A stretch of 64,000 nucleotides of DNA from an uncultured Klebsiella sp. (GCA_964555355.1 CAZKRY010000003.1:192878-256877); one strand, 5' to 3'. Positions 2,512-36,607 are shown, counted from the stretch's first letter. A program made the numbers and translations. Notes: generated from the sequence alone by a model not told the origin.

Positions 2512-3543
2512 ATGAAATTTGGCCTGCTGTTCACTTTCCAATTACCGCCTGGCTGTGGCATCCCATGGCATGAGCCCTATCAAGACATGCTCAAATGTCT
2601 GCCACGCGCGGAAGCCTTAGGCTATCACTCGATGTACCTCGCCACGCATCACGCTAAAACAGATGGCCTGTGTCCCGGCCCGTTACCGACTTTAGGCGCG
2701 GCGGCGGCGGTGACCAAGACCATGAAGATTGGCACCGCCGTCATGTTGGTGCCGATGTACGCGCCGTTAAAACTCGCAGAAGACTTGGCGGTGCTCGATA
2801 ACATCTCCGAGGGACGGCTCATCGTTGGCGTGGCACCCGGCTATGTGGCGGAAGAATTTGCCGCGCATGGTATTCCGCGCGAGGAGCGCGTTGGTCGATT
2901 TGAAGAATCGCTCGATCTCATGATCACGGCCTGGACGCAAAATGAGTTCGAATTCAATGGCAAATTCTTCAAAGTGCCGCGTACGGTGATGACGCCGAAG
3001 CCCGTGCAAAAGCCGTATCCGCAACTGTGGTACGGCGTGTCCGCCAAGGCTTCATTGCGTCGCGCGGCTAAGCGGCACGCCATTCAAATCATGTCGCCGC
3101 GTCATGGGGTGGAAGAACTCCAGGCGCATTTTGCGCCGTATGAAGCGGCGGCCAAGGAGATTGGTTGGACGATTCCGGAACGTCCCATCATCCGCCAAGT
3201 ATTCGTCGCACCCACGATGCAAAAAGCAGAAGCGCTCGCAGCACCCGCCATCGAGCATCTTTATCGCGAAGTTTATGGCAAGGCTTCGGCGGCCGGCGAT
3301 CGCGCGCTGCGTAACGACGATGGCAGTGTCATCACCGATCACAACCAAGTGAGTTTTCAGACCTTTAAGCAACGGTACATCGTGGGCACGCCGGAATTTG
3401 CGATTGAGGAGATCCGCAAATACCGCGACGGACTGAATTGCACCGAGATGGTATGTTGGATGCACATGCCGGGCATTCGCGGCGCGGACGTCATGACTTC
3501 CGTTGAGCTTTTTGCCAAAGAGGTAATGCCGGCATTTAAGTAA
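2512..3543 (+). CDS. LLM-class flavin-dependent oxidoreductase (luciferase-like monooxygenase)
   Basis: TIM-barrel LLM sequence pattern along its length (MKFGLLF..., GRLIVGVAPGY...). Confidence 0.8.
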   Translation: MKFGLLFTFQLPPGCGIPWHEPYQDMLKCLPRAEALGYHSMYLATHHAKTDGLCPGPLPTLGAAAAVTKTMKIGTAVMLVPMYAPLKLAEDLAVLDNISEGRLIVGVAPGYVAEEFAAHGIPREERVGRFEESLDLMITAWTQNEFEFNGKFFKVPRTVMTPKPVQKPYPQLWYGVSAKASLRRAAKRHAIQIMSPRHGVEELQAHFAPYEAAAKEIGWTIPERPIIRQVFVAPTMQKAEALAAPAIEHLYREVYGKASAAGDRALRNDDGSVITDHNQVSFQTFKQRYIVGTPEFAIEEIRKYRDGLNCTEMVCWMHMPGIRGADVMTSVELFAKEVMPAFK

Positions 3544-3578: not shown

Positions 3579-4133
3579 ATGGACCTATTACAAACTGTGT
3601 TACAAGCTCAAGGCGGTCAAATGGTCGGCCAATTGGCCCGCCAATTTGGCTTGAATCAATCACAGGCCGGTAGTGCGTTGGAACAACTCATTCCCGTGCT
3701 CGGCGGCGCGGTCAAGCGGAACATGGGCCAGACCGGCGGTCTAGAAGCATTGCTTGGCGCACTGCAAAACGGGAACCACAGCCGCTATCTAGAGGATGCA
3801 ACTGAATTAGGCAACCCGGATACGGTCATGGATGGCAACGCCATCCTCGGTCACCTGCTTGGCGGCAAAGACGCAAGCCGACAGGTGGCGACCCACGTTG
3901 CCTCCAACACCGGCCTTGATAGTGGTGTTTTAAAAAAGATGTTGCCTATCGTTGCGACAATGATCATGGGGGCAATGAGCAAACAGGCAGCGGGTGGCGG
4001 ACTCGGCAATCTGCAAGTTGGACAGGGGACGGGTGCGCAATCGCCACTGGGCGGATTGCTATCGTCGTTTCTTGATCAAAACAAAGACGGCAGCGTGGTT
4101 GATGATGTTTTGGGGATGATTTTCAAGCGTTGA
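3579..4133 (+). CDS. DUF937 (YidB-like) domain protein
   Basis: Gly/Leu-rich repeats of the GGLxxLLxxL type characteristic of DUF937. Confidence 0.55.
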   Translation: MDLLQTVLQAQGGQMVGQLARQFGLNQSQAGSALEQLIPVLGGAVKRNMGQTGGLEALLGALQNGNHSRYLEDATELGNPDTVMDGNAILGHLLGGKDASRQVATHVASNTGLDSGVLKKMLPIVATMIMGAMSKQAAGGGLGNLQVGQGTGAQSPLGGLLSSFLDQNKDGSVVDDVLGMIFKR

Positions 4134-4139
4134 TTAGCG

Positions 4140-4654
4140 CTACCTCATCTCACATTGATTGGCGCGCGATCCCATAAAGCGCATGGTCTCGGTGGAACCC
4201 GGCCGCGTGAAAGCGTCGCCGGTCGCGGCGGTTTTTGTCGCGACGAATTCTTCTTGCACCATGCAACAATAGGTGCGGTTTATCTTGCGAAAGACACAGC
4301 GCGCGAAACGCGCGCCGCCCACGGGACTCCACACTTCGATCACCGGATAAAGCTCGCGCGTTCCCAGTACCGCGGCGCCCACCGTTTCCGCGGCAAAGCC
4401 GTAAACGCGCCCTGTTTTTAAGTCCGTGATTTGAAATTCGGCGTGTTGTGTGCCGGTGACAATATCAGCCGCCTCTTCGGCATCCGACGAATGCGATGCG
4501 ATGACGGAGATTTCGAAGTCATCCACTTGGTAGATTTCTGGTGATTGCCGTAATCCAAACTCATAAACACGCGCAGGCCATGCCGCGGCTAGCGCCGCCA
4601 TGCTGAATGCGGCGAGGATACTCGCTAACCCACCGCTAATACGCCGCCTTGTTC
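4140..4654 (-). CDS. Hypothetical exported protein (Tat-like RRR signal peptide)
   Basis: MRGTRRRISGGLASILAAFSMAALAAAWPA leader. The ORF extends to 4712 but the internal start is preferred. Confidence 0.4.
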
Positions 4655-4710
4655 CGCGCATGCTGAATTCAGTACCCTTCACGCTTGAATCATCGTCGAG
4701 AACTCGCACC

Positions 4711-5196
4711 ATGCGCCATTGCAGTACGCTTCTAGGGTTGGTTGCTGCCTGTGTTGTTGGGCCCGCGCACGCGGAAAACGCTTTTTTTGTGATCCCTTTC
4801 GGCGGCGAACCCGGGGCACCGTTAGCGCACTCTTACGATTACGGCAAAGCACCGGAATTCGCGAGTACCTACACCATGCGTATTCCAAGTGTCGATCCCG
4901 AAATCGCGACGGTGTTACCAGATGTCGAACTTACGATCGACCCCTCCAACAAAATTGTGCAACGAGTGTTTGCCGCGCGCGCCTATCGTGCACTAACCGA
5001 ATGCAATGCGGCGCGAGAAATTGTCCAGCAAAAGCTCACGAAGGCATTGCCCGCGCCTTTCACCGGCACCGGTGAGGCCTGGCAATATCAATCCCCGGAC
5101 GGCAAAGTGGTGGGCGGCGCCTATTGCATGACCGCTCGCTACCTGCCGTTTCCAACCTTGACGGTGGAGCTGGTACTCGCGCCGGGCGCGCACTAA
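4711..5196 (+). CDS. Hypothetical secreted protein
   Basis: MRHCSTLLGLVAACVVGPAHA signal peptide. No recognisable domain. Confidence 0.4.
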   Translation: MRHCSTLLGLVAACVVGPAHAENAFFVIPFGGEPGAPLAHSYDYGKAPEFASTYTMRIPSVDPEIATVLPDVELTIDPSNKIVQRVFAARAYRALTECNAAREIVQQKLTKALPAPFTGTGEAWQYQSPDGKVVGGAYCMTARYLPFPTLTVELVLAPGAH

Positions 5197-5200
5197 CGTA

Positions 5201-7528
5201 TCAATCAGGCAACCCGAGCACTGCTTTGGAAATGATATTGCGTTGGATCTCGTTACTTCCGCCGTAAATCGTCGCTGGCCGCGCAGTGTAAAAGAGGCTC
5301 ATGACATCGACTTTGTGATCGCCCACCTGCAGCGCCGCCAACTGTCCACCCGCGCTTCCCACGCATTCAATGAGCCACTCTGTGAGCTTGGAATACGTTT
5401 CAGTGGCAAAAATTTTGAGCAGCGAAACTTCCGGGCCCAGCGCTTCACCGCGTCTAACTTGATCCGCAAATCGTCCGTATAAGGATTCCAGATCCATGAC
5501 GTCACATTTGAAACGAGTGTAACGATCGCGGAACGCGGGATCGTTCAATAAGCCATAATGCCGCGCCACCTCGGTCAACCGCTGAAACGCGTATTGCGAT
5601 TGTTTGGGGCTGCCCAAGAAAATTCGTTCGAACCCCAAGAGCGCTTTGGCAATGGTCCACCCTTGGTTCAACCCGCCGACCACGTTTTCTTTTGGCACTC
5701 GCACGTTGTCTAAAAACACTTCGCAGAATTCTTCGTTGCCGGCGATATTGCGAATCGGGCGCACGGTTATGCCGGGCGTCGTCATATCGATGAGCAAAAA
5801 GCTGATGCCGGCTTGCTTCTTTGCGCTCTTGTCGGTGCGCGCAAGCAGAAACATGTGCGTGGCGTCCTGCGCAAGCGTGGTCCACGTCTTTTGGCCGTTC
5901 ACGACAAAGTGATCGCCATCAAGCACGGCTTCCGTGCGCAGGCTCGCCAAATCCGAGCCGGCATTCGGTTCGGAATAGCCTTGGCACCACACATACTCGC
6001 CGCTCAATATTTTGGGTAGATAGTGCGCGCGCTGCGCTTCCGCACCGTGCTGAATCAACAACGGACCGACCATGATGATGCCCATGTCCGGTGCGCGGGC
6101 AACTCCCCAGCGTTCTTGCTCTTCAATAAAAATTAAAAGCTTGCCCGGATTTAACCCCATGCCGCCATATTGGCGTGGCCACGCGGGTGCGACCAAACCG
6201 TGCGCGGAAAGTTTTAAGTACCATGGCTTTATTTCATGCCATCGCACACGGCGCGGCGGATAACGCAACTCCGATGGGTAGTTGGTTTCAAACCAATGCC
6301 GGATAGTCGCGCGGAAATCGTCGTCGCTGAGCGCGTTCCAATCGCCATTCGCAGGCATGGCGGATTGGCCGAGCGCCGCGCCGTCATGCGCGTCGTTATC
6401 GGTGGCCAAGTTCGCGATCCGCTGCACGTGCCATTGCGTATTGCCCAGTGCGGCAGCGTAAGTGAGCGCGCGATTGACGAACAGTCCAACATCGCACTCA
6501 TCGGTAAAGCCAATTGCGCCGTGCATTTGGATCGCTTCGCGCACCACTTTGAGTGCAGCATCGCTCGCCCGATACTTTGCGCGGCTAACCAACAGGGCTT
6601 GCCCCTGCGCGTCTTCACCCGCCAACCCGGTGAGCGCATCATCGACGACGATCTGCGCAAGTTCACATTGCAGCTTGAGATCGACCGCACGATGTTGCAA
6701 CGCCTGAAACGATCCAATCAGACGCCCAAACTGCTGCCGAGTATTTAGATACTTAAGCGTCACCTCGAAACAAGCCGACATGAGCCCGCATAGATAGCTC
6801 GCAATCAGCAGAGCGCCTTCATTGAGCGCCGTGCTGAGTGCGGCGGCGGCGGTGTTGCCGCGCGCGAGCAGGCAGTCGGCGCTTATTTCCGTATTGTTGA
6901 AAACTACCGTCGCGTGGTGCGTGCCGTCCGCAAGCGGTTGCGCGTTTATGGTAACTCCCGGCGCGGTGCGCGGAACCCACACCACGGCATAACTTTCATC
7001 GAGCCAGCCGTTAACTAGGAAGCCATCGGCGACTAACGCATGAGATACCGCGAACTTCTGACCATCGATTCGATAACCGCCGTTGGCAGCGATAATGCGG
7101 GTCGCGAGCTCCGCTTCGTTCGCGGCGAGCGGATGTTCCTGCCAGGCGATAAGCGGTAAACACTTTCCTTCGGCAAGTTGCCCGAGTAACTCGGCGACTC
7201 TTCCCTGCAGCGGCAACTGCGCAAGCAGACTCGCGCTTAGGCCCGCGACTTCTATCAAAGGCTCCGGTGCCGCCACGTGCCCAAGCTCACGGGCAACCGC
7301 GGCAAGCGCCGACACCCCAAGGCCAAGCCCACCCGCACTTTGCGGGATCTGAATCGAGGTCCAGCCGAGTTCGACCATTTGCACCCACAGCGCCTGATCA
7401 AAGCCCGCTGACCCGCCTCGCAAGGCGCGTAGACGTGTCATTGCCGCGTCTTTCGCACAAAGAGAGCGCGCGCTGTCGGCAAGCATGGTCAGATCATCGG
7501 TTTCTATCGATTGAGCAACTGCACTCAT
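5201..7528 (-). CDS. Fused two-domain acyl-CoA dehydrogenase family protein (775 aa)
   Basis: C-terminal half is a typical ACAD (WCQGYSEPNAGSDLASL, DHFVVNGQKTWTT). The N-terminal half is a second, divergent ACAD fold. Confidence 0.8.
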   Translation of the reverse strand: MSAVAQSIETDDLTMLADSARSLCAKDAAMTRLRALRGGSAGFDQALWVQMVELGWTSIQIPQSAGGLGLGVSALAAVARELGHVAAPEPLIEVAGLSASLLAQLPLQGRVAELLGQLAEGKCLPLIAWQEHPLAANEAELATRIIAANGGYRIDGQKFAVSHALVADGFLVNGWLDESYAVVWVPRTAPGVTINAQPLADGTHHATVVFNNTEISADCLLARGNTAAAALSTALNEGALLIASYLCGLMSACFEVTLKYLNTRQQFGRLIGSFQALQHRAVDLKLQCELAQIVVDDALTGLAGEDAQGQALLVSRAKYRASDAALKVVREAIQMHGAIGFTDECDVGLFVNRALTYAAALGNTQWHVQRIANLATDNDAHDGAALGQSAMPANGDWNALSDDDFRATIRHWFETNYPSELRYPPRRVRWHEIKPWYLKLSAHGLVAPAWPRQYGGMGLNPGKLLIFIEEQERWGVARAPDMGIIMVGPLLIQHGAEAQRAHYLPKILSGEYVWCQGYSEPNAGSDLASLRTEAVLDGDHFVVNGQKTWTTLAQDATHMFLLARTDKSAKKQAGISFLLIDMTTPGITVRPIRNIAGNEEFCEVFLDNVRVPKENVVGGLNQGWTIAKALLGFERIFLGSPKQSQYAFQRLTEVARHYGLLNDPAFRDRYTRFKCDVMDLESLYGRFADQVRRGEALGPEVSLLKIFATETYSKLTEWLIECVGSAGGQLAALQVGDHKVDVMSLFYTARPATIYGGSNEIQRNIISKAVLGLPD

Positions 7529-7553
7529 GGGTAACTCTTCTTATAAAAATGAA

Positions 7554-8411
7554 TTAGGAGGTCGCGCGGATCTTGGCGGCGATCGCGGCGATTTGATCAA
7601 GCAACGGCAACACTACGTCAGCATTGGCGGATGGAAGGCCAAAAATGAAATCGGTAAAGCCTTCGCGCATGCGTTCACGAGTTTGTGCTTCGTCAATCGG
7701 CGCGTAGAACAACGCGAGGGTGAGGTCTTCCGCGCGGCGGCCGATACGCGCGCAGGCGTCGGCGAGTATTTGCGCATTGCCCTCACCGCTGCGCCCAACG
7801 ATCGGCATCCAACCGTCGGCGTATTCGGCCACCCGCGCCGGGACCCACTTTGAGTTCGATCCAATCCAAACCGGTGGCCCGTCATTCTGGACAGGTTTGG
7901 GGTAAGACCACATACGATCGAAGGTCACAAAGTTGCCGTGGAATTGCGGCTCCTCCTGTGACCAAATACGTTTCATCGCCAAAATGCGTTCACGCAAAAT
8001 TGGCCACCGCTGGTTATACGGGGTACCGTGATTTTCCATCTCCTCGGCGTTCCAACCGGCACCGACGCCGAGGACCACTCGGCCGTTCGACAATCTATCG
8101 AGTGTCGCAATTGTTTTCGCGAGCACGATCGGGTCGTGCTCGGTGACCAAACAAATGCCCGTCCCAAGTTTGATATGCGCGGTCACGGCCGCAGCCATGG
8201 CGAGCGCGATGAACGGATCGTAAGTACGCTTGTAATGCTCCGGGACCACGCCGCCTGGCAAAAATGGTGATTGCGAATTCACCGGCATGTGCGTGTGCTC
8301 CGGGACGAACATCCCGTCTAAGCCGCGCGCTTCGATTGCGCGCGCGAGTTCCATCGGCTGCATGCTGAGGTCGGTGGGGAAAATGAACACATGGGCACGA
8401 AACATAAGCAC
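7554..8411 (-). CDS. LLM-class oxidoreductase, F420/MSMEG-type subgroup (paralogue of 31177..32037)
   Basis: PEHTHMP, LGTGICLVTEHDPIVLAKTIATLDRLSNGR and GVGAGWNAEEMENHG are shared almost verbatim with the 31177 gene. Confidence 0.8.
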   Translation of the reverse strand: MLMFRAHVFIFPTDLSMQPMELARAIEARGLDGMFVPEHTHMPVNSQSPFLPGGVVPEHYKRTYDPFIALAMAAAVTAHIKLGTGICLVTEHDPIVLAKTIATLDRLSNGRVVLGVGAGWNAEEMENHGTPYNQRWPILRERILAMKRIWSQEEPQFHGNFVTFDRMWSYPKPVQNDGPPVWIGSNSKWVPARVAEYADGWMPIVGRSGEGNAQILADACARIGRRAEDLTLALFYAPIDEAQTRERMREGFTDFIFGLPSANADVVLPLLDQIAAIAAKIRATS

Positions 8412-8487
8412 GCTTGCTCCTTCTGAGAGCGTGAATGTTAGCAGGCCGAAGGGGCCTTCATCAGCTAGAACGCGACCCTATCGTAGG

Positions 8488-9417
8488 TCATCGAATAGTC
8501 ATCGCGGCGAAACCGGCGATCCATTCGCGGATCGGGCGATACATCAGTACCCGTGCCCGCGCGGCGGGGTCCGCTTCCATCGCGGCGGTCGCCGCGACCC
8601 AGGTGCGAACCTCATGCCCGCCACACCCGGCCAGGCGCGAGACTTCCTGGTCATCGTGCAAACCGAGCGAGGTGTAGTCCCGTGCGACAAGCGCAGTCAG
8701 GAACTGCCGATCCCAAGCGGCATTAAGCGGTACTTGTTGGCTCAGCCCTTGTACTTGCTTGGTACTTTCTTCGATTACCCGAGTGACGCGCTCGGCGCGC
8801 GCGGCATCGGTTAAGGATCCGCCTGCCACGATACGTTCAATGACCGCCGGGTTCGTCGCGGCCAGTGTCGGCATCGGCGGATCGTGCGAAAGCCCACCAC
8901 TGCCTAGGATGAGCACGCGACGATCGAGCGTGCAAGCGAAGTCCCCCACCGCGCGTCCGAGGGCAAGCACCCGCGCCAACGGTGGACGGGGTGCCGCGGC
9001 ACAGTTGATAAACACCGGAACGAGCGGTGGCAATGTCGCCCAATCAAACAAGAGATTCAGAATTTGCGTAAAGCCGTGATCGAGTTCCATACGATAAGAA
9101 ATTGCCGCGTCCACCCCTGCCTGGTGTAACGATGAAACACAGCGCTCGCTAATGTCGCGTGCGATCGGTAGCGCACCCGCCGGCGTCTTCCAATCGCCCA
9201 CCGACGTTGCTTCCGCGCCTACGCAGAAACTCGGCAGCACGCGATAAAAAAAACCATTGAAGTGATCAGGCCCAAACACCACCACGAGTTCGGGCGCAAA
9301 CTCGCGCACGAAATTCCTTAACGCGTCAAACGCCTGGTTGACTTCGGCACGTGCGCCCTCACCTGGATCGGTGTAGTCCATCAGTGGCGTATGTGAAGCA
9401 CAGATCGCGGCTAACAC
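8488..9417 (-). CDS. LigB-type (class III) extradiol ring-cleavage dioxygenase, MhpB-like
   Basis: Full-length resemblance to 3-(2,3-dihydroxyphenyl)propionate 1,2-dioxygenase (CASHTPLM..., ELVVVFGPDHFNGFFY, MELDHGF, GSGGLSHDPP, HEVRTWVAA). Confidence 0.85.
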   Translation of the reverse strand: MLAAICASHTPLMDYTDPGEGARAEVNQAFDALRNFVREFAPELVVVFGPDHFNGFFYRVLPSFCVGAEATSVGDWKTPAGALPIARDISERCVSSLHQAGVDAAISYRMELDHGFTQILNLLFDWATLPPLVPVFINCAAAPRPPLARVLALGRAVGDFACTLDRRVLILGSGGLSHDPPMPTLAATNPAVIERIVAGGSLTDAARAERVTRVIEESTKQVQGLSQQVPLNAAWDRQFLTALVARDYTSLGLHDDQEVSRLAGCGGHEVRTWVAATAAMEADPAARARVLMYRPIREWIAGFAAMTIR

Positions 9418-9420
9418 TGG

Positions 9421-10284
9421 TTAGCTCCGCAAGAACTCAAGGTGTAAGCGGTTGAAGGTTGCGGCATCTTCAAACTGCGGCCAATGCCCGCATCCTTTCA
9501 TCAATTTGAATATCGCGTTAGGAATGAGCGCGGCTAAGCGTTCACCCACCTCAACCGCCGCGGTGGGATCTTTGTCAGTCCACAACACCAGGGTTGGCGC
9601 GCGGATTGCACGCCATTCGTCGTCGGTCAAATTATTGCGCAAACGAATCTCGGGTTCTTGAAGGCAGAGGATCTGCGGCATCGCATTTAGCATGACGGGC
9701 TGTTGGTAGATGGCCTGCCGGCAGGCGACGAGATCGTCGGTCACGGTGGTTGGATCAGCCATCAACCATTCGAGTCTTGCCTTGACCGTGTCCCAAGTTG
9801 GATTGGCTACCGCCGCCATCGTCAGCGTTTTGATCCGTTGCATGACTTCCGCGTTCATGGTCGCCCCGCCGGTGGTATTGAGCACGAGGCGACCGACGCG
9901 CGCGGGGTACTTGAGCGCAAAGCGCGCCGCCACCCAACCGCCCAAGGATTCGCCCGAGAGATGGATCCGTGCAAACCCGAGCGTGTCCGCTATCTCGCGC
10001 ACGTGCTCGACATAACGATCGATCTCGTACGGAAAATCCGGCTTGTCCGAGAAACCATGACCGATTAGGTCGACAGCGTAGGTATCAAATGATTCGCCGT
10101 GGGCAAGCAGATTGCGCGCGTAACACTCGGCGTGTCCGCCGGTGCCGTGCAGCAGAATGAGTGGCGGAGAGCCGCGCTTTCCGGCATGTAAAAAACGTGT
10201 GCGGTAGCCGCCTGCGTGGAGATAACCCTGTTCGAAGCTCCCACCACGCAGATCGCTCCAGAAACTATTCAATGCGTTGTTCAC
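9421..10284 (-). CDS. Meta-cleavage-product hydrolase (alpha/beta hydrolase, MhpC/BphD-like)
   Basis: LLHGTGG, nucleophile elbow GESLGG, C-terminal CGHWPQFE. Overlaps the oxygenase gene by 4 bp. Confidence 0.85.
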   Translation of the reverse strand: MNNALNSFWSDLRGGSFEQGYLHAGGYRTRFLHAGKRGSPPLILLHGTGGHAECYARNLLAHGESFDTYAVDLIGHGFSDKPDFPYEIDRYVEHVREIADTLGFARIHLSGESLGGWVAARFALKYPARVGRLVLNTTGGATMNAEVMQRIKTLTMAAVANPTWDTVKARLEWLMADPTTVTDDLVACRQAIYQQPVMLNAMPQILCLQEPEIRLRNNLTDDEWRAIRAPTLVLWTDKDPTAAVEVGERLAALIPNAIFKLMKGCGHWPQFEDAATFNRLHLEFLRS

Positions 10285-11735
10285 AGTCCCTCCACCAACC
10301 GCTTGAGATGATCGAGATAGTAGCCTTTTCTAGCGTATTCTCGCTGAATTCCGGCAAGTAACGCGCCGCGTTCACCGGCGTAATTCATTTCATAAAGCTC
10401 GTGCCGAGCACCAAACTCACTGCCGCAAATATCCCACGCAAGTTTGTACAGCACTGCTTTGTCGCGACCGGACACGCCGGCACCGCGCAATGATTTTTCT
10501 AACGCATCCGCGATCGGCGAATTGAATTCGTTCAAGCTTACCGGCAGCTGAATCAAGCCGCCGCCGGCGACGCGCTTTAACATGTCAACGAGCTTGGGGT
10601 AGTACACCGGACCGAGTGCGCGTCCGGTTTGTAAGGCGGCGAGGTCGGGATAGAGGACGAGGTTTTCGGGATCGACGGTCGCTTGTTCTTCGGCCGAGCG
10701 CGTGGTGCTGCGGATGACCTCCAAGCAAGCGACCGCCTCTCCCAACATCTCCATCATATCGCTTTTTTGAGCGAGACCGGTAACTTCTGTTAAACGATTT
10801 ATCAACGCATAGACAAAACCTAGTTTTGTCTCGAGCCGAGCATTGGTCTGGTGGGCGGTGAATTCGCGCATGCGCGAATCGCGATACATGCGATTGAGGA
10901 GTGAAATATCTTCGTGCAGAAAGACCCTTTCCCAAGGCACCAGCACATGATCGAATACCACTGTCGCATCGAGTTCGTCGAAGCGCGACGACAACGGATG
11001 ATCGCCACGCACGCCCTGCAAAGGTGCGAACGACGGACGGCAGAGGGTCTTTAATCCTTTAGTGTTCATCGGAATCGCGAACACATTGGCATACGCTTCC
11101 TCGCCCGGTTGAAAGGTTGGCGGGAACGGCCATACGAGTAACTCGTCGGCATAGGGTGCCGCGGTCGCGATCCGTTTGATGCCATTGACGATGAGACCTT
11201 CGTTTGTGCGCTCGACAATCTTCAGCGGGATCTCCGGAGCTGACTGCTGGTGGCGCGACCTGCCCTTGTCGAGCTGCGGATCGAGAAGCGCGTGCGTCAG
11301 AAATAAATCGTTACGGGCGATGTACCGGTAGTAGTCGACCACGGCGGCAGCACGCGCCGGCGCGCATTCGGCAAAAAAACTTTTCTTGGCGGCAAGCGAC
11401 ATCACCATCACATTGAGGAAGTCCGGGCTGCGCCCCATCATCCCGTAGGTGGCTTCGGCCCATATAACATAGGCCTCGCGCTTTAAGCGTAGCTGTCCGC
11501 GCGTTCGCGGGATCTCGAAAGGTCGCGCGATCCGCTCGCCAAATTCCGGGCAATCCACCGTTAAGGTGTCGCGATGGCGTGCCTCGTGCTGCAGGTCATA
11601 CAGCATGGCGGTCGATTTGATTGCGGCGGCCATTGGCGCAAATGTCGTGACGTCTTCGACGCGCTTGCCGTCGTACCACACTTCACGTCCATCGTGTAGA
11701 CCAGCGAGATATTGTTGTCCTGTCCGGATCCCCAT
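10281..11735 (-). CDS. HpaB-family two-component flavin-dependent monooxygenase, oxygenase component (4-hydroxyphenylacetate 3-monooxygenase-like)
   Basis: YLAGLHDGREVWYDGKRVEDVT, DHPLSSRFDELDA and GARHELYEMNYAG closely parallel E. coli HpaB. Confidence 0.85.
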   Translation of the reverse strand: MGIRTGQQYLAGLHDGREVWYDGKRVEDVTTFAPMAAAIKSTAMLYDLQHEARHRDTLTVDCPEFGERIARPFEIPRTRGQLRLKREAYVIWAEATYGMMGRSPDFLNVMVMSLAAKKSFFAECAPARAAAVVDYYRYIARNDLFLTHALLDPQLDKGRSRHQQSAPEIPLKIVERTNEGLIVNGIKRIATAAPYADELLVWPFPPTFQPGEEAYANVFAIPMNTKGLKTLCRPSFAPLQGVRGDHPLSSRFDELDATVVFDHVLVPWERVFLHEDISLLNRMYRDSRMREFTAHQTNARLETKLGFVYALINRLTEVTGLAQKSDMMEMLGEAVACLEVIRSTTRSAEEQATVDPENLVLYPDLAALQTGRALGPVYYPKLVDMLKRVAGGGLIQLPVSLNEFNSPIADALEKSLRGAGVSGRDKAVLYKLAWDICGSEFGARHELYEMNYAGERGALLAGIQREYARKGYYLDHLKRLVEGL

Positions 11736-11772
11736 GACTTCTATTCCTCATTTTTGCGCCGTGTTCGACACT

Positions 11773-11789
11773 TCCTGCCAATGTGGCAG
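11773..11789. promoter_or_regulatory. Palindrome CCTGCCA-atg-TGGCAGG in the divergent promoter
   Basis: Read directly from the sequence. Confidence 0.4.
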
Positions 11790-11824
11790 GTCTGAGCAGG
11801 CGCGACTTGAGTGCCATTCTCGCT

Positions 11825-11840
11825 ACTAATATATTAGTAT
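11825..11840. promoter_or_regulatory. Perfect 16-bp palindrome TACTAATATATTAGTA; candidate GntR-type operator
   Basis: Perfect dyad symmetry, 34 bp upstream of the GntR ATG and in the promoter of the divergent catabolic operon. Confidence 0.5.
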
Positions 11841-11873
11841 GTCAATGAACCTATTCATCTGGACAACACTGCC

Positions 11874-12623
11874 ATGTCGAAGCGATCCATAAAAAGCGGC
11901 GACGCCTTTGCGCTACGTGGTGCGTCCATCGGCGGGCGCGCGCACGACGCTTATGCACATTTGCTGCTGGAGTTGTTGGAAGGCGAACTCCGGCCTGACG
12001 ACTGGATCGCCGTCAATGACATCGCAAGTAAACTCGACTGTAGCCGCGTGCCGGTCATGGAAGCAGTGAAGCGCCTCGCTGGTGATGGTTTCTTGACCAT
12101 CGTCCCGCAAGTCGGCTGTCGGGTCGTGTCGCCCGAGCCGCGAGAGGTGCTCGACTTTTTTTCGCTGTTCGCCGCCGTGGAAGGGTGTGTCACGCGGATG
12201 GCCGCGGAACGTCGTGCGCCTGAGGAACTAGTGGGATTCAAAGAAGTCTGTGCACACGTCGATCGGTTATTACGCGATGCGGGCCCGCCGTCGGCCCATG
12301 ATCCTGTCTACCGTCGGGCGAATTTGCTTTTTCACTCGCAAATTCACGCCCTAGCGAAATCGCCGCAAACCTGTCGAGTCGCGATGGGGATGTGGGACCG
12401 GAGCGATTTTTACATCAAAGTCGCCTTCGGTTCGCTTCACTTCAATCAGCGTGTGCGCGCCGCGCATCTCGCAATTCGGCGCGCCATCGAACAGGGTAAT
12501 GCCGACGAGGCCGAACGTGCGGTCGAACAACATTTGCGTGCGGTAGGGCTTGCGGTCAGTCGTCGATTAGACGAAAGAACGGAGTCGCCCGGCGCCAAGC
12601 CTCGGACTCCTACGCGCCTTTGA
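11874..12623 (+). CDS. GntR-family transcriptional regulator (FadR/FCD C-terminal domain)
   Basis: N-terminal wHTH (IASKLDCSRVPVMEAVKRLAGDGFL) plus an alpha-helical FCD-like C-terminus. Confidence 0.8.
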   Translation: MSKRSIKSGDAFALRGASIGGRAHDAYAHLLLELLEGELRPDDWIAVNDIASKLDCSRVPVMEAVKRLAGDGFLTIVPQVGCRVVSPEPREVLDFFSLFAAVEGCVTRMAAERRAPEELVGFKEVCAHVDRLLRDAGPPSAHDPVYRRANLLFHSQIHALAKSPQTCRVAMGMWDRSDFYIKVAFGSLHFNQRVRAAHLAIRRAIEQGNADEAERAVEQHLRAVGLAVSRRLDERTESPGAKPRTPTRL

Positions 12624-12668
12624 TGAATTTTCGGGTTGGTGGCAAGGCTCGATAGTTTGCCGCTGACG

Positions 12669-13661
12669 TTAGTCAACCGCTTTGCGGTGAAAACTTAAAT
12701 AGTCAGCGGCGGTGTCACGCGGCCGCTCCACCATCGGGCAGTGCCCCATGTACGGCATGATCCTGACATCGGCTTGCGGCAACATTTTTTTCAGTGTCGT
12801 GGCACCCGAGCGATGAACAAGGCGATCGTCATCACCCCACACAATTAACGTTGGCGTCGTAAGGCCAGCGATTCGGTCTTCGAGAAATATCGGATCGCCG
12901 AAAATTTCATCGAACATCTTTTGGTTAAAGGCGCGATTTTGCATGCCGCGCTCGCGCCAGATGCGATTGAACTCAGCCGGGACCCATGGGGTTTTCGCAA
13001 AAACCATGTTGGCGAGACGTTTGCCGCTCACATCGGTTTCCATCATTAGCACGTTGTCGCCGCGCGCGATTAAGTTAAATAGCTCGCTTAGCTCGGCATC
13101 GCGCGAGCCCGCGGGCGCGAGTAGCCATAACGACTGGACCTGTTCGGGCGCTTTCGCCGCGTACATGGCGGATAAGTACCCGCCCATCGAGTTGCCACCA
13201 AGATGAAACTTGTGCAGCCCTAACGAGCTGGCGAATTTACCGATGCGCTCCAATTGGCTATCCAAATCGTAACGCGCTTCAGAAAGACGCGAAGCGTCAC
13301 CGAAGCCGGGGATGTCCGGCGCGATAACGCGAAAATGCGGCGTTAAAAATTTCGCAATCTGCGACCAATGATCTTTTTCGGCGCCAAAACCGTGTAACAG
13401 CAGCAGTGGCTCACCGATTCCGCCTTCGAGATACGGTATGCGGTGATCGTCAATCATGGTTTCCTTGAGGGTGAGACCAGACAGCCTGCGCTGTGTACGC
13501 TTGGCAAACTCAAAACATTTTTCGGGAAAGAGCTTGTACCCGGCGTATGTCGCGCCAGCCAGCAGCAAAAGTTTACCTAACATGTAAGCCCCTCCCCCCA
13601 AGTTGTTCGTCGTTGCAGTATAAAGCACCTCGCGCAACGCCACGGCATCGCGTCTACTCAA
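12669..13661 (-). CDS. Alpha/beta hydrolase (possible N-terminal membrane anchor; alternative start at 13583)
   Basis: LLLHGFGAEKDHW, GNSMGG nucleophile elbow, C-terminal MGHCPMVE. Confidence 0.7.
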   Translation of the reverse strand: MSRRDAVALREVLYTATTNNLGGGAYMLGKLLLLAGATYAGYKLFPEKCFEFAKRTQRRLSGLTLKETMIDDHRIPYLEGGIGEPLLLLHGFGAEKDHWSQIAKFLTPHFRVIAPDIPGFGDASRLSEARYDLDSQLERIGKFASSLGLHKFHLGGNSMGGYLSAMYAAKAPEQVQSLWLLAPAGSRDAELSELFNLIARGDNVLMMETDVSGKRLANMVFAKTPWVPAEFNRIWRERGMQNRAFNQKMFDEIFGDPIFLEDRIAGLTTPTLIVWGDDDRLVHRSGATTLKKMLPQADVRIMPYMGHCPMVERPRDTAADYLSFHRKAVD

Positions 13662-15378
13662 TGACCGGTAACAGCAGATGCGAAGCGCGAGCGCTATCGT
13701 GAAATACGCGCTGCATTACGGGTTCAAGATGGACTGCCTCGTGGGCGAGTTCAAATGTATTGGGGTTCCGGTCGTAGCGCGGAAAGTCGCTCGAGGTCAC
13801 GATGACATGCAAACGATGGCCGGCGCCGAAGACCATCGCCGTCGACCACAGATCAACCTCTACTTTCAACACTTCGTTGGGTTCGACCGGAATGCGCGTG
13901 CGGCCATCGCGGAAAGACAACCGCAAGATACCGTCGCACACGTTGAATATGTGCCCATCCGGATGCACGTCGCACAGCTTTACAATGAAATCGGTGTCGC
14001 GACCGGAGGTCGCGACATACAGTACCGCGCGCACCGGCCCGATCACTTCAAGGGGAGTGGTTAGGGGCGATGAAATGTAATTCAACACATCGCGACGCGC
14101 TGCAATTTTGCTTTGTTCAACCGGCCCCGCAGTGTATTGCGCCGGAAGCAAGACGGTGCCGCCGGCAGTGGGGCAAGGGTCGTTAGGATTAAAAACGAAA
14201 GCGCGCGCGAGCGCGGTTGACGGTGTATGTTTGCGCGACAAAGTGGCGTCCCCGTTGAGGTACCACGGTGTCGGCCGTGCGCGTACCAATGGCCAAGTCT
14301 CTTCGTCGCGCCAGCGATTGATTCCTTGGACGAAGATATTAACGGGTGCTTCTTGCTGCGGCATTTCTTGTGCGTTGCGCAACCAATGCTCAAACCAACG
14401 GAGTTGCAGGCGGGTCAGATCCTCGCGCATATCCATCAACAGGCCATTGGCGCGAAAGCCGAAATCAAGCTGCCCAACGACGTTCTGAAACATGCCATGC
14501 GACCACGGCCCGATCACGAGCCGAGTCGCATTCCGTGCGAGTTCGCTACCGCCGTGCGTGCGCATCGCTTGAAAATGCTGCAGGTCGGCGGACAGTAAGA
14601 GGTCATGCCAACCGGCGATGATGAGCGCCGGCGCTTTCACTTGAGCATGACGTCCGGTCATGAGCAGATCTTGCGTCCACGCGTCAGGGATCGGGTGTTT
14701 TAGAAATTCAAAAAAGAAGGGTAGAAAAGAAGGATCTTCCGGCCGCGCCGGCAAAAATTGCTGCAATGGAAGTTGCTGCACCACATTCTCAAAATCATCG
14801 ATATCGTCGATCAACTGGGTAAGCAGTGGAAAAAATTCTGCGGGATTTGGGCGCGCGCGAATTAGTGCGGCAGGTCCAATCGCGCGCAACGCCCACATCG
14901 CAAGCGTGCCGATATTGAGGGCACCGCCGCGCCAAAAATGATCGCGCCAGAAATCGAGTGGCGCGGTGGTGGGCGAAAGCGCACGAAGTGCCGGATGGCC
15001 TGAAGCTGCCGCAAGCCAGGACGTGCCACCCATGTAAGACAGCCCATAACAGCCGACCGCGCCGTTCGAGAAGGATTGCGCCGCCGCCCACGCAATCGAA
15101 TCCGCCCCATCTCGCGCTTCGTCACGATAGGGAAAAAACGTGCCGCCACCGGAGGCCCAGCGCGCTCGGACATCTTGAATGATGACTGCAAATCCCGCCG
15201 CCGCCGCCCGAATGGGGTCTAACGTCATCGCGGTGATTGGCCATAACTCCTTGTTATATGGGGTTCTTTGCAGCAGCACGGGATACTTGCCCGGGGCGGA
15301 TGGCCGGTAGATATCGGCACGCAATTCAGTGCCGTCGGCGAGTGGGATCGCCACGTTTTTCTCAACCAACACCGTCAT
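13654..15378 (-). CDS. CocE/NonD-family hydrolase (S15 X-Pro dipeptidyl-peptidase fold)
   Basis: RADIYRPSAPGKYPVLLQRTPYNK N-terminus; GLSYMG nucleophile motif. Confidence 0.8.
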   Translation of the reverse strand: MTVLVEKNVAIPLADGTELRADIYRPSAPGKYPVLLQRTPYNKELWPITAMTLDPIRAAAAGFAVIIQDVRARWASGGGTFFPYRDEARDGADSIAWAAAQSFSNGAVGCYGLSYMGGTSWLAAASGHPALRALSPTTAPLDFWRDHFWRGGALNIGTLAMWALRAIGPAALIRARPNPAEFFPLLTQLIDDIDDFENVVQQLPLQQFLPARPEDPSFLPFFFEFLKHPIPDAWTQDLLMTGRHAQVKAPALIIAGWHDLLLSADLQHFQAMRTHGGSELARNATRLVIGPWSHGMFQNVVGQLDFGFRANGLLMDMREDLTRLQLRWFEHWLRNAQEMPQQEAPVNIFVQGINRWRDEETWPLVRARPTPWYLNGDATLSRKHTPSTALARAFVFNPNDPCPTAGGTVLLPAQYTAGPVEQSKIAARRDVLNYISSPLTTPLEVIGPVRAVLYVATSGRDTDFIVKLCDVHPDGHIFNVCDGILRLSFRDGRTRIPVEPNEVLKVEVDLWSTAMVFGAGHRLHVIVTSSDFPRYDRNPNTFELAHEAVHLEPVMQRVFHDSARASHLLLPVIE

Positions 15379-15413
15379 TCGAAACGTCCTTTGTGAGCGC
15401 TTTTTAAAAAAAA

Positions 15414-15480
15414 TGTTGCATTGCGATTGACATCTAATCGGATGGCTTCTATAAATGTCAATGTATTTTGCGGTGCAACA
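15414..15480. promoter_or_regulatory. Nested inverted repeat TGTTGCA..TTGACAT / ATGTCAA..TGCAACA upstream of the phasin-like gene
   Basis: Arms 15414-15420/15474-15480 and 15427-15433/15455-15461 are reverse complements. Confidence 0.45.
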
Positions 15481-15527
15481 ATCCGCGCCACTGCCCTAGG
15501 TACAACGACTCTAGTGAGGACTCGACG

Positions 15528-15947
15528 ATGGCCACAGCCACCAACGCACAAGACACTCTGCTCAATCCGGAATCTTTTGGCCCGTATTTCGACAAGCTGA
15601 CCGAGCGTATGGACGAAGTCAGCACCGCGCTCAAAGATTCACACGCTCGCACCCAGCGTATCGGCGCCGAACTAATGGACGCCTTCTTGGCAAGCCAACG
15701 CGATATGCTGTCGTTAACCAAGCAAGTCACGCTGAAGCCACAAGACTACGCCGCGAACATCAAGGCGATGGTCGATGCGTCGACCGTCGCACAAGAACGT
15801 GCCATGTCGCTTGCAAAAACGTTCTATCGCGAACAAGCAGATGTCGCGGGCGAATTCCGTAAGGTGTTTCAGTCGGCTTGTGAGTCGACTGCTTGCATGA
15901 CCGAAGACGGCCGCAATATCGCGAGTTTTTGGTCCAAAGCTCGCTAA
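15528..15947 (+). CDS. Putative phasin / PHA-granule-associated protein (140 aa)
   Basis: Small helical acidic protein, GTGAGGA RBS, located at the head of a PHA synthase cluster. Family assignment is by context. Confidence 0.4.
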   Translation: MATATNAQDTLLNPESFGPYFDKLTERMDEVSTALKDSHARTQRIGAELMDAFLASQRDMLSLTKQVTLKPQDYAANIKAMVDASTVAQERAMSLAKTFYREQADVAGEFRKVFQSACESTACMTEDGRNIASFWSKAR

Positions 15948-16025
15948 ACGCGGGGCGAAAGGCAGCGCCGCTCGTACTTGCGCGGCGCTGTTCGGCGCAT
16001 CCTTAACAACCAATAAGAAAGCGCT

Positions 16026-16841
16026 ATGTCAGACGATCGTTTCGCTCCGCAGGGATTGGAAGACAGCCCATTCGAACACGACCCCTCGGTCGAGGCGACG
16101 CTTACGCCCTTATGGCGCGAGGCGGCCTGGCCCTTGGAATGGTTGCGCTTACGCGCGAGTCCGGTGTTCTATGGGTGCGGCGTCACGCGCGGTGCGGGTG
16201 AACCGGTGCTGTTGATCCCGGGATTCATGGCGGGAGACGCCATGATGCTTGAACTTCACCGATGGTTAAAGCGCATCGGCTATCGGTCGTATCTATCGAA
16301 CATCGCGTGGAACAACGATTGTCCGGACCGCACAGCTAAACGCATGGCGCTGCGCTTGCAGTCGATAAAACGCGAAACCGGCCGCAACGTGCGGATCATC
16401 GGACATAGCTTGGGCGGAATGTTGGCCAAGAGCCTCACGCAGGATCATCCCGAGGTTATCGACCGCATTATTACATTGGGCTCGCCGTTTCGGTCGTTGG
16501 TTAAAGCGCACCCGGCCGTCGTCGGCATTTGGGAGCAATTGAAAGTCAATCGCAGCAAATTAGTCGGGCGCCACTTGAAGGCATCGTGCGGCACCGGTCA
16601 TTGCTTGTGCGGATTTGTAAAGAATCTAGTGCAACCTGAACACCGTCCGGTGGCGCAATTTGCAGTCTACTCGCGGGCCGACGGCGTAGCCGATTGGAGT
16701 AGCTGTGTGGAAGACGATCCCGCGGCTAACACCGAAGTGAACTGCACGCACATCGGCATGATTTATCACCCTGATGTTTATCAGGCGATCGCGCGGCGCT
16801 TGGCGCAACCGCTTGCAAACACCTCGGCGCCGATCGTTTAA
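16026..16841 (+). CDS. Alpha/beta hydrolase with lipase box GHSLGG (lipase/esterase-like); Cys-rich insert CGTGHCLCG
   Basis: GHSLGG nucleophile elbow. Sits between the phasin-like gene and phaE. Confidence 0.6.
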   Translation: MSDDRFAPQGLEDSPFEHDPSVEATLTPLWREAAWPLEWLRLRASPVFYGCGVTRGAGEPVLLIPGFMAGDAMMLELHRWLKRIGYRSYLSNIAWNNDCPDRTAKRMALRLQSIKRETGRNVRIIGHSLGGMLAKSLTQDHPEVIDRIITLGSPFRSLVKAHPAVVGIWEQLKVNRSKLVGRHLKASCGTGHCLCGFVKNLVQPEHRPVAQFAVYSRADGVADWSSCVEDDPAANTEVNCTHIGMIYHPDVYQAIARRLAQPLANTSAPIV

Positions 16842-16866
16842 AAAACCAAAGACTAGGACGCTTCTT

Positions 16867-17262
16867 ATGTCGAACGAAAAATTGGATCCGATGGCTCTGT
16901 GGCGCGATTGGTTTGTAAAGTCCGAGAAATCTTGGAGCCAGGCCATGACCGACATGATGGGGGATGAACGATTCTCCAAGGGGTTTGGCCGGTATATGCA
17001 AGAAGCGCTGCATACACACCGGATGTTCACCGAAGGCATGAGCCAGTATCTCGCTAATTTGAACCTGCCATCACGCTCGGACGTGCTCGAAGTCTCCGAT
17101 CGCCTGGGCCAACTGGAAGACGCCGTCGCTGCTTTGCAAGTCGAGTTGCGGGAACAGCGCGTGCAACTGGCCCGAATCCTGCAGTCGAATGGAGTAGCGT
17201 CGCCGATCGACACGCCGGTCCGGCCGAGTCGCACGAAACGCCCCCCAGGAGAAGGCAACTGA
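16867..17262 (+). CDS. phaE: Short PhaE/PhaR-like PHA synthase subunit (131 aa)
   Basis: NLPSRSDVLEVSDRLGQLEDAV motif resembles the PhaE C-terminal region. Stop TGA overlaps the phaC ATG by one nt (TGATG). Confidence 0.5.
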   Translation: MSNEKLDPMALWRDWFVKSEKSWSQAMTDMMGDERFSKGFGRYMQEALHTHRMFTEGMSQYLANLNLPSRSDVLEVSDRLGQLEDAVAALQVELREQRVQLARILQSNGVASPIDTPVRPSRTKRPPGEGN

Positions 17263-18365
17263 TGGCTGCTGCATCGCTTATGGACACTGGCGCCGCCGGT
17301 GACAAAGCACAGATTGAAGAGCGCGTTAAGAAGGCGGTCGATCGCGCGCTTTCGCGTAATATTCCGGGGCTTGCGCTGCAACAGGCCGAACTCGATTTGG
17401 AAGTCGGCCAAACGCCCAAGGAATTGATTTATACGCGGGATTCCTTGCGTCTTTATCACTATTTGCCACTGACTTCCGAGATCTATCGGGTGCCGGTGCT
17501 CATTGTGATGTCGCCGGTCGCGCGCGGTTACATTCTCGATCTCGCCAAGGGGCAGAGCTTCATCGAATATCTGCTGCTGCAGGGATATGATGTCTACTTG
17601 ATGGATTGGGTGCCGCCGCGACGCGAACATGCACATCTTGGCATGGCGGATTTCGCCCTGAATTTGATCGACGAAAGCATCACAAGAGTGCAAAACGACT
17701 GCGGCGAGACCGAAGTCTCCGTCGTCGGCTATTGCATGGGCGGCTTACTCGCGGTGATGAATGCCGCGATTCACGACCATGGTCCGATCAAGAATTTAGT
17801 CTGCTTTACCACACCGGTGAATGCCGACGGCATGCCACTTTACAAAACATGGGTGGAAACCGAAGCATTCGATATCGATCGGATCGTGCGCGAGCTCGGC
17901 ATCATTCCCGGTGACATGATCAACGCATCGATTCAAGCACTGCGCCCGCTACAAAAACGCGCCAATCAAATGCAACTGTTGAATAACGTCGAGAACGATG
18001 CCTTTGTCACCGCGAGTCTGCGGTTTGACCGTTGGGCCGCGGATCAGCTGCCGATCCCGGGCGAACTGGCGCGCGACATGGTGCGTGACTTTCTACGCGG
18101 CAATAAGCTCGTCAAAAACGAATACATGCTGGGCGGTCAGCGCGTCGAATTAGGTATGGTGCAAATTCCGTTTTTGCATGTGGCGGCCGAGTTTGACCAT
18201 ATTGTCCCAACGGCCGCCTCAAGCGACTTAGCGAAACTGGTGGGAAGCAAAGATAAAAAAGAAATTATCGTCAAAGGCGGACACGTCAGTCTGGTCGCGG
18301 GTGGCAACGCCGTCTATCGACTGTGGCCGCAACTCGATAGCTGGCTCAGCGCGCGTTCCGTATAA
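17262..18365 (+). CDS. phaC: Class III poly(R)-hydroxyalkanoate synthase catalytic subunit PhaC
   Basis: ~367 aa, lipase-box GYCMGG with catalytic Cys, overall class III PhaC pattern. Confidence 0.85.
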   Translation: MAAASLMDTGAAGDKAQIEERVKKAVDRALSRNIPGLALQQAELDLEVGQTPKELIYTRDSLRLYHYLPLTSEIYRVPVLIVMSPVARGYILDLAKGQSFIEYLLLQGYDVYLMDWVPPRREHAHLGMADFALNLIDESITRVQNDCGETEVSVVGYCMGGLLAVMNAAIHDHGPIKNLVCFTTPVNADGMPLYKTWVETEAFDIDRIVRELGIIPGDMINASIQALRPLQKRANQMQLLNNVENDAFVTASLRFDRWAADQLPIPGELARDMVRDFLRGNKLVKNEYMLGGQRVELGMVQIPFLHVAAEFDHIVPTAASSDLAKLVGSKDKKEIIVKGGHVSLVAGGNAVYRLWPQLDSWLSARSV

Positions 18366-18401
18366 TCTCCACCATTCTGAAGCTCCCGAGACCTTATCGT
18401 T

Positions 18402-19010: not shown

Positions 19011-19098
19011 AGGTTCGCTCTCCCCTTTTCGTTTCACTCGGTCGGCGCTGCGGAGTGACCCACCCCGGGCGCGCCTCTAAGCGGTCTGCAAATGAATT

Positions 19099-29388: not shown

Positions 29389-29393
29389 GCCCC

Positions 29394-31150: not shown

Positions 31151-31176
31151 CCCACAGCACCCGGAAAGGATCGTGT

Positions 31177-35735: not shown

Positions 35736-35743
35736 TGGCCGCC

Positions 35744-36592: not shown

Positions 36593-36607
36593 CCCGCGCG
36601 CTATCCA

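Follow-up and report, generated by a model that had tools for sequence, protein, structure and literature searches.

A conserved HpaB-type oxygenase, hydrolase and MhpB-type dioxygenase cassette with a predicted GntR operator in uncultured Gammaproteobacteria

The stretch of DNA analyzed here (termed the window) is 64,000 nucleotides in length and is from an uncultured Klebsiella sp. (GCA_964555355.1 CAZKRY010000003.1:192878-256877). Coordinates given without a locus name are those of the whole window. The minus strand at positions 5201-11735 displays five co-directional open reading frames (ORFs), and the first three of these encode an HpaB-family oxygenase, an alpha/beta hydrolase and an MhpB-type extradiol dioxygenase. 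With moderate confidence, the conserved unit of this locus is considered to be these three genes, predicted to be translationally coupled, together with a GntR/FCD repressor gene, with divergent promoters that share a palindromic operator. The remaining two genes, which encode a luciferase-like (LLM) oxidoreductase and a fused acyl-CoA dehydrogenase (ACAD), would then be accessory. The cassette probably degrades a phenolic acid.

Organization of the locus

ORFs were called in the window and the protein families are from Pfam and NCBIfam. The genes of the locus, in order of transcription from the regulator outwards, are as follows.

11874-12623, plus strand: GntR/FCD regulator, divergent from the catabolic genes (Pfam GntR and FCD)
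10281-11735, minus strand: HpaB-family oxygenase, 484 aa (HpaB_N and HpaB domains)
9421-10284, minus strand: alpha/beta hydrolase, 287 aa (top models HsaD and BphD, each under its cut-off)
8488-9417, minus strand: LigB/MhpB-type dioxygenase, 309 aa (NF009910, 355 bits, cut-off 291)
7554-8411, minus strand: LLM oxidoreductase, 285 aa (TIGR03619, 241 bits, cut-off 167)
5201-7528, minus strand: fused ACAD, 775 aa, with two ACAD modules

The hpaB and hydrolase genes overlap by 4 bp, GTGA, as read directly from the sequence, and a spacer of 3 nt lies between the hydrolase and LigB genes. The following spacers are 76 nt (LigB to LLM) and 25 nt (LLM to ACAD). The five genes, their families and the 4-bp and 3-bp junctions are the same as those of a preliminary description of this DNA.

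Pfam scans, which took in the large ORFs of the window down to about 100 aa, show no flavin reductase, hydratase, aldolase or acetaldehyde dehydrogenase in the window. Searches by tblastn with E. coli MhpA, MhpD, MhpE, MhpF and MhpR and with two flavin reductases gave zero matches in the window and in 61 related loci. The two analyses bear out the earlier statement that the window is devoid of a flavin reductase and of mhpDEF. The presence of an HpaB-family enzyme in the place of MhpA within a meta-cleavage cassette, also proposed earlier, is consistent with the families, the synteny and the lack of an MhpA match by tblastn.

Distribution of the three-gene unit

The oxygenase has hundreds of close relatives and where these are named, almost all are from metagenome-assembled genomes (MAGs) of Gammaproteobacteria. 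A scan of one genome per species gives 57 HpaB loci at 64-82% identity, and the next matches are at 37% or less. Nearly all of these 57 are from uncultured Gammaproteobacteria or Pseudomonadota of lakes, groundwater and glacier streams, with some from marine samples; a few are labelled as other organisms or are evidently mislabelled. Among 1.8 billion representatives searched without a profile, there is one oxygenase sister at 47% identity, the rest being at 40% or less. The oxygenase gene of the window itself gave no exact match on look-up, and the comparisons are with its relatives.

The comparison set consists of 62 sequences, i.e. the window and the 61 related loci, where ORFs were called and compared with the window proteins. 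Apart from loci truncated by the end of a contig, practically all keep the order hpaB-like, hydrolase, mhpB-like. By tblastn, an MhpB-like match is present in 54 of the 62 sequences and an MhpC-like match in 55, the window included. The trio is far from a chance arrangement. Together with a divergent GntR/FCD gene, it is found in about 55 species-level MAGs of uncultured Gammaproteobacteria.

The genes past LigB vary by clade. They encode an MFS transporter, an LLM, an amidase, a thiolase-like protein, a PEP-utilising enzyme or biotin carboxylase, or a Rieske oxygenase, and another variant has a family III CoA-transferase, sometimes accompanied by an ordinary ACAD. The Rieske oxygenase found after LigB in loci L019 and L022 is not orthologous to the Rieske genes of the window at 29244-31150 (29-36% identity). 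No linked reductase or mhpDFE-type lower pathway is detected in the 61 loci by tblastn.

About 25 loci have a different LLM gene, of 423 aa, directly upstream of hpaB (e.g. L002, positions 8680-9951). The nearest solved relatives of this protein are LuxA-type enzymes and 3,6-diketocamphane monooxygenase. Comparison with the window proteins shows no orthologue of the 423-aa LLM in the window.

The HpaB-type oxygenase

The full length of the oxygenase is covered by the HpaB_N (PF11794, 3e-91) and HpaB (PF03241, 4e-39) domains. It is classified on this basis as an HpaB-family (group D) protein, the predicted oxygenase component of a two-component flavin-dependent phenol hydroxylase. The sequence is under both equivalog cut-offs for 4-hydroxyphenylacetate 3-monooxygenase (TIGR02309, 375 against 480 bits; TIGR02310, 269 against 885 bits) and shows a 38% identity to Thermus HpaB (2yyg).

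Positions R102 and H148 are invariant and represent the Arg and His of the catalytic set (Thermus R100 and H142). The position of Thermus Tyr104 is occupied by Phe106, which is also invariant; Phe is frequent here in uncharacterised HpaB branches and hence is not unique to this clade. Thermus S197 and T198 are replaced (by Pro-Pro-Thr-Phe) within a WPFPPTF loop that is invariant in 121 orthologues. The residue roles in Thermus HpaB, including those of Ser197 and Thr198, which hold the carboxylate of 4-hydroxyphenylacetate, are described in PMC6710988.

A neighbour-joining tree was made, which is rough, has no support values and is used only for non-nesting within characterised groups. The oxygenase clade joins its 47% sister and is apart from the Thermus-type clade (FPSTLL motif) and the E. 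coli-type clade. The phylogeny thus appears to place the oxygenase in no family with a known substrate. Placement with a characterised family, which according to the preliminary description would, together with a complete standard pathway elsewhere in the genome, make the arrangement ordinary, is not seen in this tree.

The MhpB-type dioxygenase

E. coli MhpB (structure 8K04, match 2.8e-81) shares 44% identity with the dioxygenase, which exceeds the cut-off of NF009910, one model for 3-carboxyethylcatechol 2,3-dioxygenase. Residues H9, H52, H114, H178 and H268-E269 are invariant in 37 orthologues. H114 and H178 align to MhpB His115 and His179, which are taken to be the acid-base residues, and the other invariant residues are presumably the expected Fe ligands. 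The protein is assigned from its sequence to the MhpB type of the LigB superfamily, i.e. the class III Fe(II) extradiol catechol dioxygenases. The earlier assignment as an MhpB-like LigB-type enzyme is confirmed by the identity and by the model score.

The GESLGG hydrolase

The top matches of the hydrolase in PDB are HsaD, CumD, BphD and MhpC at 84-111 bits, and the sequence is about equally distant from all four. Identity to E. coli MhpC is 29%. The scores with the HsaD and BphD models are low, 144 bits against a cut-off of 400 and 106 bits against 462, respectively. The triad S113, D239 and H267, together with R189, C265 and W268, is kept in 32-33 of 33 sequences. This Arg and the Cys-Gly-His-Trp sequence are residues typical of C-C hydrolases (dienoate site).

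The nucleophile elbow is GESLGG, with E112 invariant in all 33 orthologues, whereas MhpC has GNSMGG and HsaD has GNSLGG. The elbow Asn of BphD and MhpC contacts the 2-hydroxy-dienoate end of the substrate. The protein is predicted to be a C-C hydrolase of the meta-cleavage-product type that belongs to a GESLGG subfamily. The previous term “MhpC-like” is correct as far as the branch of the superfamily is concerned. It does not extend to MhpC orthology, given the 29% identity, the equal distance from HsaD, BphD and CumD, and the Glu in place of Asn. For C-C hydrolase enzymology, the Glu-for-Asn subfamily poses a minor question.

NCBI nr contains a hydrolase of 74% identity under the names ‘A312’ and ‘E295’ from an uncultured bacterium (ART35489.1, ART37509.1). 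It may have been cloned in a functional metagenomic screen.

The GntR regulator and its predicted operator

The intergenic gap between gntR and hpaB is 138 bp. Three sites are found in it.

11824-11839: perfect 16-bp palindrome TACTAATATATTAGTA, the predicted GntR operator, which overlaps both promoter-like sites
11816-11845, minus strand: sigma-70-like promoter TTGACA-18-GAGAAT of the hpaB operon (consensus match only)
11807-11835, plus strand: facing promoter-like site of gntR (consensus match only)

The sequence TACTAATATATTAGTA occurs once in the window, where the chance expectation is 0.03. With up to three mismatches, the palindrome is present in 32 of the 61 related loci. It mostly precedes the first gene of the operon (hpaB or the gene for the 423-aa LLM) by 37-230 nt. 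The chance expectation over the approximately 0.9 Mb of loci, obtained by scaling up the window rate, is well under 1. Since the palindrome is also found upstream of the 423-aa LLM gene, this LLM would belong to the regulon where it is present. The two promoter-like sites are the sole such matches in 4000-13000, and their count is not above that of shuffled controls. About 30 related loci have a GntR orthologue in divergent orientation to the operon. The conserved palindrome supports a model in which GntR would act as a repressor at this operator.

The LLM oxidoreductase and the fused ACAD

The LLM family assignment of the preliminary description is borne out, as the protein is above the cut-off of TIGR03619 (Rv2161c family). 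Pfam scans of the window turned up no recognisable F420 biosynthesis gene.

The C-terminal half of the fused ACAD matches the catalytic subunits of steroid ACADs, i.e. Tcur3483 (1e-49) and ChsE4 (3e-47). E634, which aligns to ChsE4 E247, is conserved in every one of 121 sequences. The N-terminal half matches the Tcur3481 and ChsE5 subunits, which are non-catalytic, and has Gly or Leu at both canonical Glu positions. The fused ACAD is thus similar to the steroid alpha2beta2 ACADs (ChsE4-ChsE5 and Tcur3481-Tcur3483) in having one catalytic module of two, however no steroid genes lie close to it in the loci that were inspected.

CasC of Rhodococcus jostii RHA1 is made up of a pair of ACAD domains fused together and has its catalytic base in the C-terminal domain only (PMC8399759). 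The window ACAD shares the two-module layout and the catalytic Glu in the C-terminal half, a likeness in architecture. It is therefore classified as having a CasC-type (pseudo-alpha-beta) layout, hence a known architecture. Some ACAD orthologues carry the JGI name 3-oxochol-4-en-24-oyl-CoA dehydrogenase, which is the CasC function name. Thus the fused double ACAD noted earlier is real, but its architecture is not novel, CasC being built alike.

A small gene is convergent with that of the fused ACAD.

4600-5196, plus strand: small secreted protein (orf198), with a signal peptide and two Cys

The orf198 sequence has no Pfam or NCBIfam match. It was considered as the missing flavin reductase and is ruled out by the signal peptide, the lack of a family match and its co-travel with the ACAD.

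Fused ACADs at 52-70% identity are very common in uncultured Gammaproteobacteria. The LLM and ACAD genes follow the trio only in the subclade of the window (HpaB at least 79% identical), i.e. in about 10 loci that represent about 9 distinct MAGs. The LigB-LLM spacers in these loci span 35-906 nt in one count and about 35-174 nt in another, and at one locus a gene on the opposite strand separates LigB from the LLM. A TAACAT-like motif is common to the longer spacers, at 25-35 nt before the LLM start, and this could be a separate LLM promoter. In the genomes of L085 and L087 the ACAD gene is located away from the trio and has a convergent small gene beside it, with 43-50% identity to orf198.

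L085, 10370-10855: orf198 homologue, convergent with the ACAD gene
L087, 10353-10835: orf198 homologue, convergent with the ACAD gene

Both genomes also have a 281-aa LLM within 4 kb of the ACAD, which among the window proteins matches the 285-aa LLM best (63-64% identity). In the L087 genome (OZ244144.1) the trio occurs twice, at 1.7 and 5.0 Mb, and the ACAD gene is located at 5.5 Mb. A third ACAD relative is found in yet another gene context. The simplest reading is that ACAD, orf198 and LLM represent an older neighbourhood of the lineage, which would have been brought beside the trio by rearrangement in one subclade. The LLM and ACAD genes may be co-transcribed with the trio in that subclade.

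The preliminary description took the trailing LLM and double ACAD to suggest an acyl-CoA side-chain or alternative downstream route. In a model of this kind all five genes would be one pathway, where the hydrolase would release a longer or unusual carboxylic acid that would be converted to a CoA ester and dehydrogenated by the fused ACAD, with the LLM carrying out a further redox step. The genes are co-directional and there is no terminator-like site in the LigB-LLM or LLM-ACAD gap. Their adjacency is kept in about 9 species-level MAGs, with some spacers of only 35-45 nt. In addition, L031, L033 and L043 have a family III CoA-transferase after LigB, and L033 and L043 have an ordinary ACAD as well. 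However, no CoA ligase or transferase is found in the operon, and the sole CaiB-type transferase of the window is 38 kb off. Most trios are without LLM and ACAD, and in other genomes the orthologues of ACAD, the small ORF and LLM are together but far from the trio. The TAACAT-like motif suggests a separate promoter and the opposite-strand gene at one locus interrupts the row. A single five-gene pathway is therefore rather unlikely. The LLM and ACAD are not retained as its downstream CoA route, as the pair is confined to the closest subclade and is found elsewhere at a distance from the trio.

Luciferase-like (PF00296) genes number five in the 64 kb, at 2512-3543, 7554-8411, 20278-21315, 25874-26944 and 31177-32037. 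The last is part of a segment (29244-32037) where genes for the alpha and beta subunits of a Rieske ring-hydroxylating oxygenase are followed directly by a 286-aa LLM, which is a paralogue of the 285-aa LLM and is 45-47% identical to the LLM of L085 and L087. The window also has a family III CoA-transferase (48122-49351) and a SnoaL-like gene. This repertoire of LLM, CoA-transferase and SnoaL-like genes recalls lineages for which oxidation of recalcitrant organic matter has been suggested.

Relatives in cultured bacteria

When plasmids were searched by translated comparison, HpaB-like genes at about 40% identity were found, and on many Rhodococcus plasmids these overlap an alpha/beta hydrolase gene. 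Two clusters are homologous to each other.

L090, 4888-12637: Rhodococcus opacus B4 pROB02 cluster, with generic annotation only
L091, 6107-10740: Thermomicrobium roseum megaplasmid block of hydrolase, HpaB, SDR, cupin and VOC genes, homologous to the pROB02 block

The pROB02 cluster encodes a GESLGG hydrolase (46% identity to that of the window), an HpaB-like oxygenase (41%), a GntR regulator (34%) and a protein annotated as 3-carboxyethylcatechol 2,3-dioxygenase (43.5%). A flavin reductase gene is also part of it, as are genes for an SDR, a cupin and a VOC dioxygenase. Two sites, GAGATCTTAGTATG(T/C)CAG, resemble the window operator. Thus the same homologous parts and operator-like sites are present, however the order in pROB02 is hydrolase, then HpaB. 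The 47% oxygenase sister adjoins a flavin reductase, an IclR regulator and a homologous hydrolase. Unlike the window oxygenase, which has no cognate reductase adjacent to it, both the sister-clade gene and the Rhodococcus gene have one beside them. The oxygenase-hydrolase pair appears from these comparisons to be old and widespread, and the linked reductase, where present, is predicted to be of the ordinary HpaC/HsaB type.

These clusters also bear on the function of the hydrolase, which might act before the hydroxylase as an esterase or lactonase, e.g. in conversion of dihydrocoumarin to 3-(2-hydroxyphenyl)propionate, with the ring-fission product processed by enzymes encoded elsewhere. Across three phyla the hydrolase is tied more tightly to HpaB than to any one dioxygenase. 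The partner dioxygenase is of the VOC type in Thermomicrobium and of both VOC and LigB types in Rhodococcus. GESxG, with Glu before the nucleophile, is a carboxylesterase-type motif and is counted on the same side. On the other hand, the Arg and the Cys/Ala-Gly-His-Trp that are specific to C-C hydrolases are conserved, and the closest solved structures are all meta-cleavage product hydrolases. Action as an esterase is thus quite improbable, and C-C hydrolysis is the function considered below.

A literature search (HpaB+MhpB+MhpC clusters, Immundisolibacter, the ohp operon and Rhodococcus plasmids) found, within the library searched, neither an account of this cassette nor an assignment of function to these clusters. 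The Rhodococcus skatole cluster is unrelated to the cassette.

Several characterised systems share features with the three-gene unit. The E. coli mhp pathway for 3-(3-hydroxyphenyl)propionate has the same logic, i.e. phenol to catechol, extradiol cleavage and then C-C hydrolysis. However, mhp has the class-A hydroxylase MhpA where the cassette has a two-component HpaB-type oxygenase, and the IclR-type MhpR where the cassette has a GntR/FCD regulator, and no mhpDFE is linked in the 61 loci. The hpp and ohp genes of Rhodococcus and hcdABC of Pseudomonas mandelii are cassettes of a hydroxylase, an extradiol dioxygenase and a hydrolase for hydroxyphenylpropionic acids (PMC6222606). These are alike in compactness, but OhpB, HppA and HcdA are single-component class-A hydroxylases, and HcdB is a type I (VOC) dioxygenase (PMC6222606). 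With HpaBC of Thermus thermophilus and E. coli, the oxygenase shares the fold and family and the Arg and His, and a separate reductase is presumed; no hpaC is adjacent here.

An HpaB-family two-component hydroxylase is known to feed extradiol meta-cleavage in the alkylphenol pathway of Rhodococcus, AphAB-AphC (PMC6710988). This system differs in that AphB, the reductase, is encoded in the same transcript, its dioxygenase belongs to type I, an AraC-type regulator is present and the full lower pathway is clustered.

Predicted pathway

In the proposed reaction order, a flavin reductase that uses NAD(P)H and is encoded elsewhere in the genome would supply reduced flavin to the HpaB-type oxygenase, and this enzyme would convert a phenolic compound by ortho-hydroxylation to a 3-substituted catechol. 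Ring opening next to the diol would then be carried out by the Fe(II) dioxygenase of the MhpB type. The hydrolase would cut the C-C bond of the ring-fission product to give 2-hydroxypenta-2,4-dienoate and a side-chain acid, and unlinked enzymes would process both. An upper pathway that leads from a phenolic acid, by way of a 3-substituted catechol, to 2-hydroxypentadienoate and an acid is the most likely one, possibly via 2,3-dihydroxyphenylpropionate. The substrate itself is not readable from the sequence, in agreement with the preliminary description. The likeliest class would be a hydroxyphenylpropionate or hydroxycinnamate-type acid that is degraded through 2,3-dihydroxyphenylpropionate with release of succinate.

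Several observations weigh against this reading. The oxygenase does not have the Tyr, Ser and Thr by which Thermus HpaB binds 4-hydroxyphenylacetate. MhpC is not a nearer relative of the hydrolase than HsaD is, and the change of Asn to Glu at the hydrolase elbow may mean that the ring-fission product is unusual. The 423-aa LLM as the first operon gene hints at an extra oxidation step upstream. Lastly, the LigB-LLM spacer is only about 35-45 nt in three loci, and co-transcription, perhaps with a functional link of LLM and ACAD, is conceivable in the lineage of the window.

A related and more far-reaching proposal is that the HpaB-like oxygenase and the GESLGG hydrolase are an ancient co-evolving pair, found in Gammaproteobacteria, on Rhodococcus plasmids and in Thermomicrobium, that may define an unrecognised but widespread route for an abundant natural phenolic. 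The Asn to Glu change would reflect a non-classical ring-fission product or chemistry, and LLM and ACAD would add a CoA branch in the window lineage. This is speculative and distinctly unlikely.

It is very improbable that the cassette is a non-orthologous replacement of HsaA, HsaC and HsaD that acts on a bulky phenol of the 3-hydroxy-9,10-seconandrost type, with the ACAD acting on the resulting acid: HsaD is the top hydrolase model, the nearest structures of the ACAD are Tcur3481-3483 and ChsE4-ChsE5 and some of its orthologues have the JGI label 3-oxochol-4-en-24-oyl-CoA dehydrogenase, but the HsaD score is 144 of the required 400 bits, the dioxygenase is MhpB-like and not HsaC-like, the Pfam scans of the window name no other recognisable steroid-pathway gene (KshA, KstD, FadD3), the sole Rieske oxygenase detected is of the two-subunit (alpha and beta) kind, and the ACAD is unlinked to the trio in most genomes.

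If the phenolic acid pathway is confirmed, the cassette would bring to four the types of upper pathway for compounds like hydroxyphenylpropionate, this one having a two-component HpaB-type enzyme instead of a class-A hydroxylase. It would also give a function to a cassette found in dozens of uncultured freshwater and groundwater Gammaproteobacteria. These organisms have many luciferase-like oxygenases, and their food is probably humic or lignin-derived matter. The cassette is a modest variant of a known pathway type, and it leaves the general picture of aromatic catabolism unchanged. The conserved operator and the homologous plasmid cluster in cultivable Rhodococcus make the question directly testable.

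Other features of the window

The block at 12669-20169 is syntenic in the closer subclades and absent from the more distant trio loci. It starts with genes for a CocE/NonD-type S15 hydrolase and an alpha/beta hydrolase, which overlap by 8 bp and are convergent with gntR. This operon (12669-15378) is excluded from the system because of its convergent orientation and because it is kept only in closely syntenic subclades. The rest of the block consists of two small ORFs without a family, a lipase-like hydrolase, a PhaC_N-containing hydrolase, a GNAT gene and an AstE/AspA-like gene.

A folate/C1 block at 32437-37759 encodes formate-tetrahydrofolate ligase, serine hydroxymethyltransferase, FolD and glycerate kinase. 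At 42372-46013 there is a 1213-aa fusion of hydantoinase/oxoprolinase A and B, followed by a 237-aa ORF without a family match. The region at 56742-62673 has LexA, SulA/ImuA-like, ImuB-like (IMS family) and DnaE2-like Pol III alpha genes in a row, i.e. an SOS-inducible mutagenesis cassette. A truncated Y2-type transposase fragment (540-1091) adjoins a tRNA-Arg(ACG) gene (1534-1610), and this may be the remnant of an integration site.

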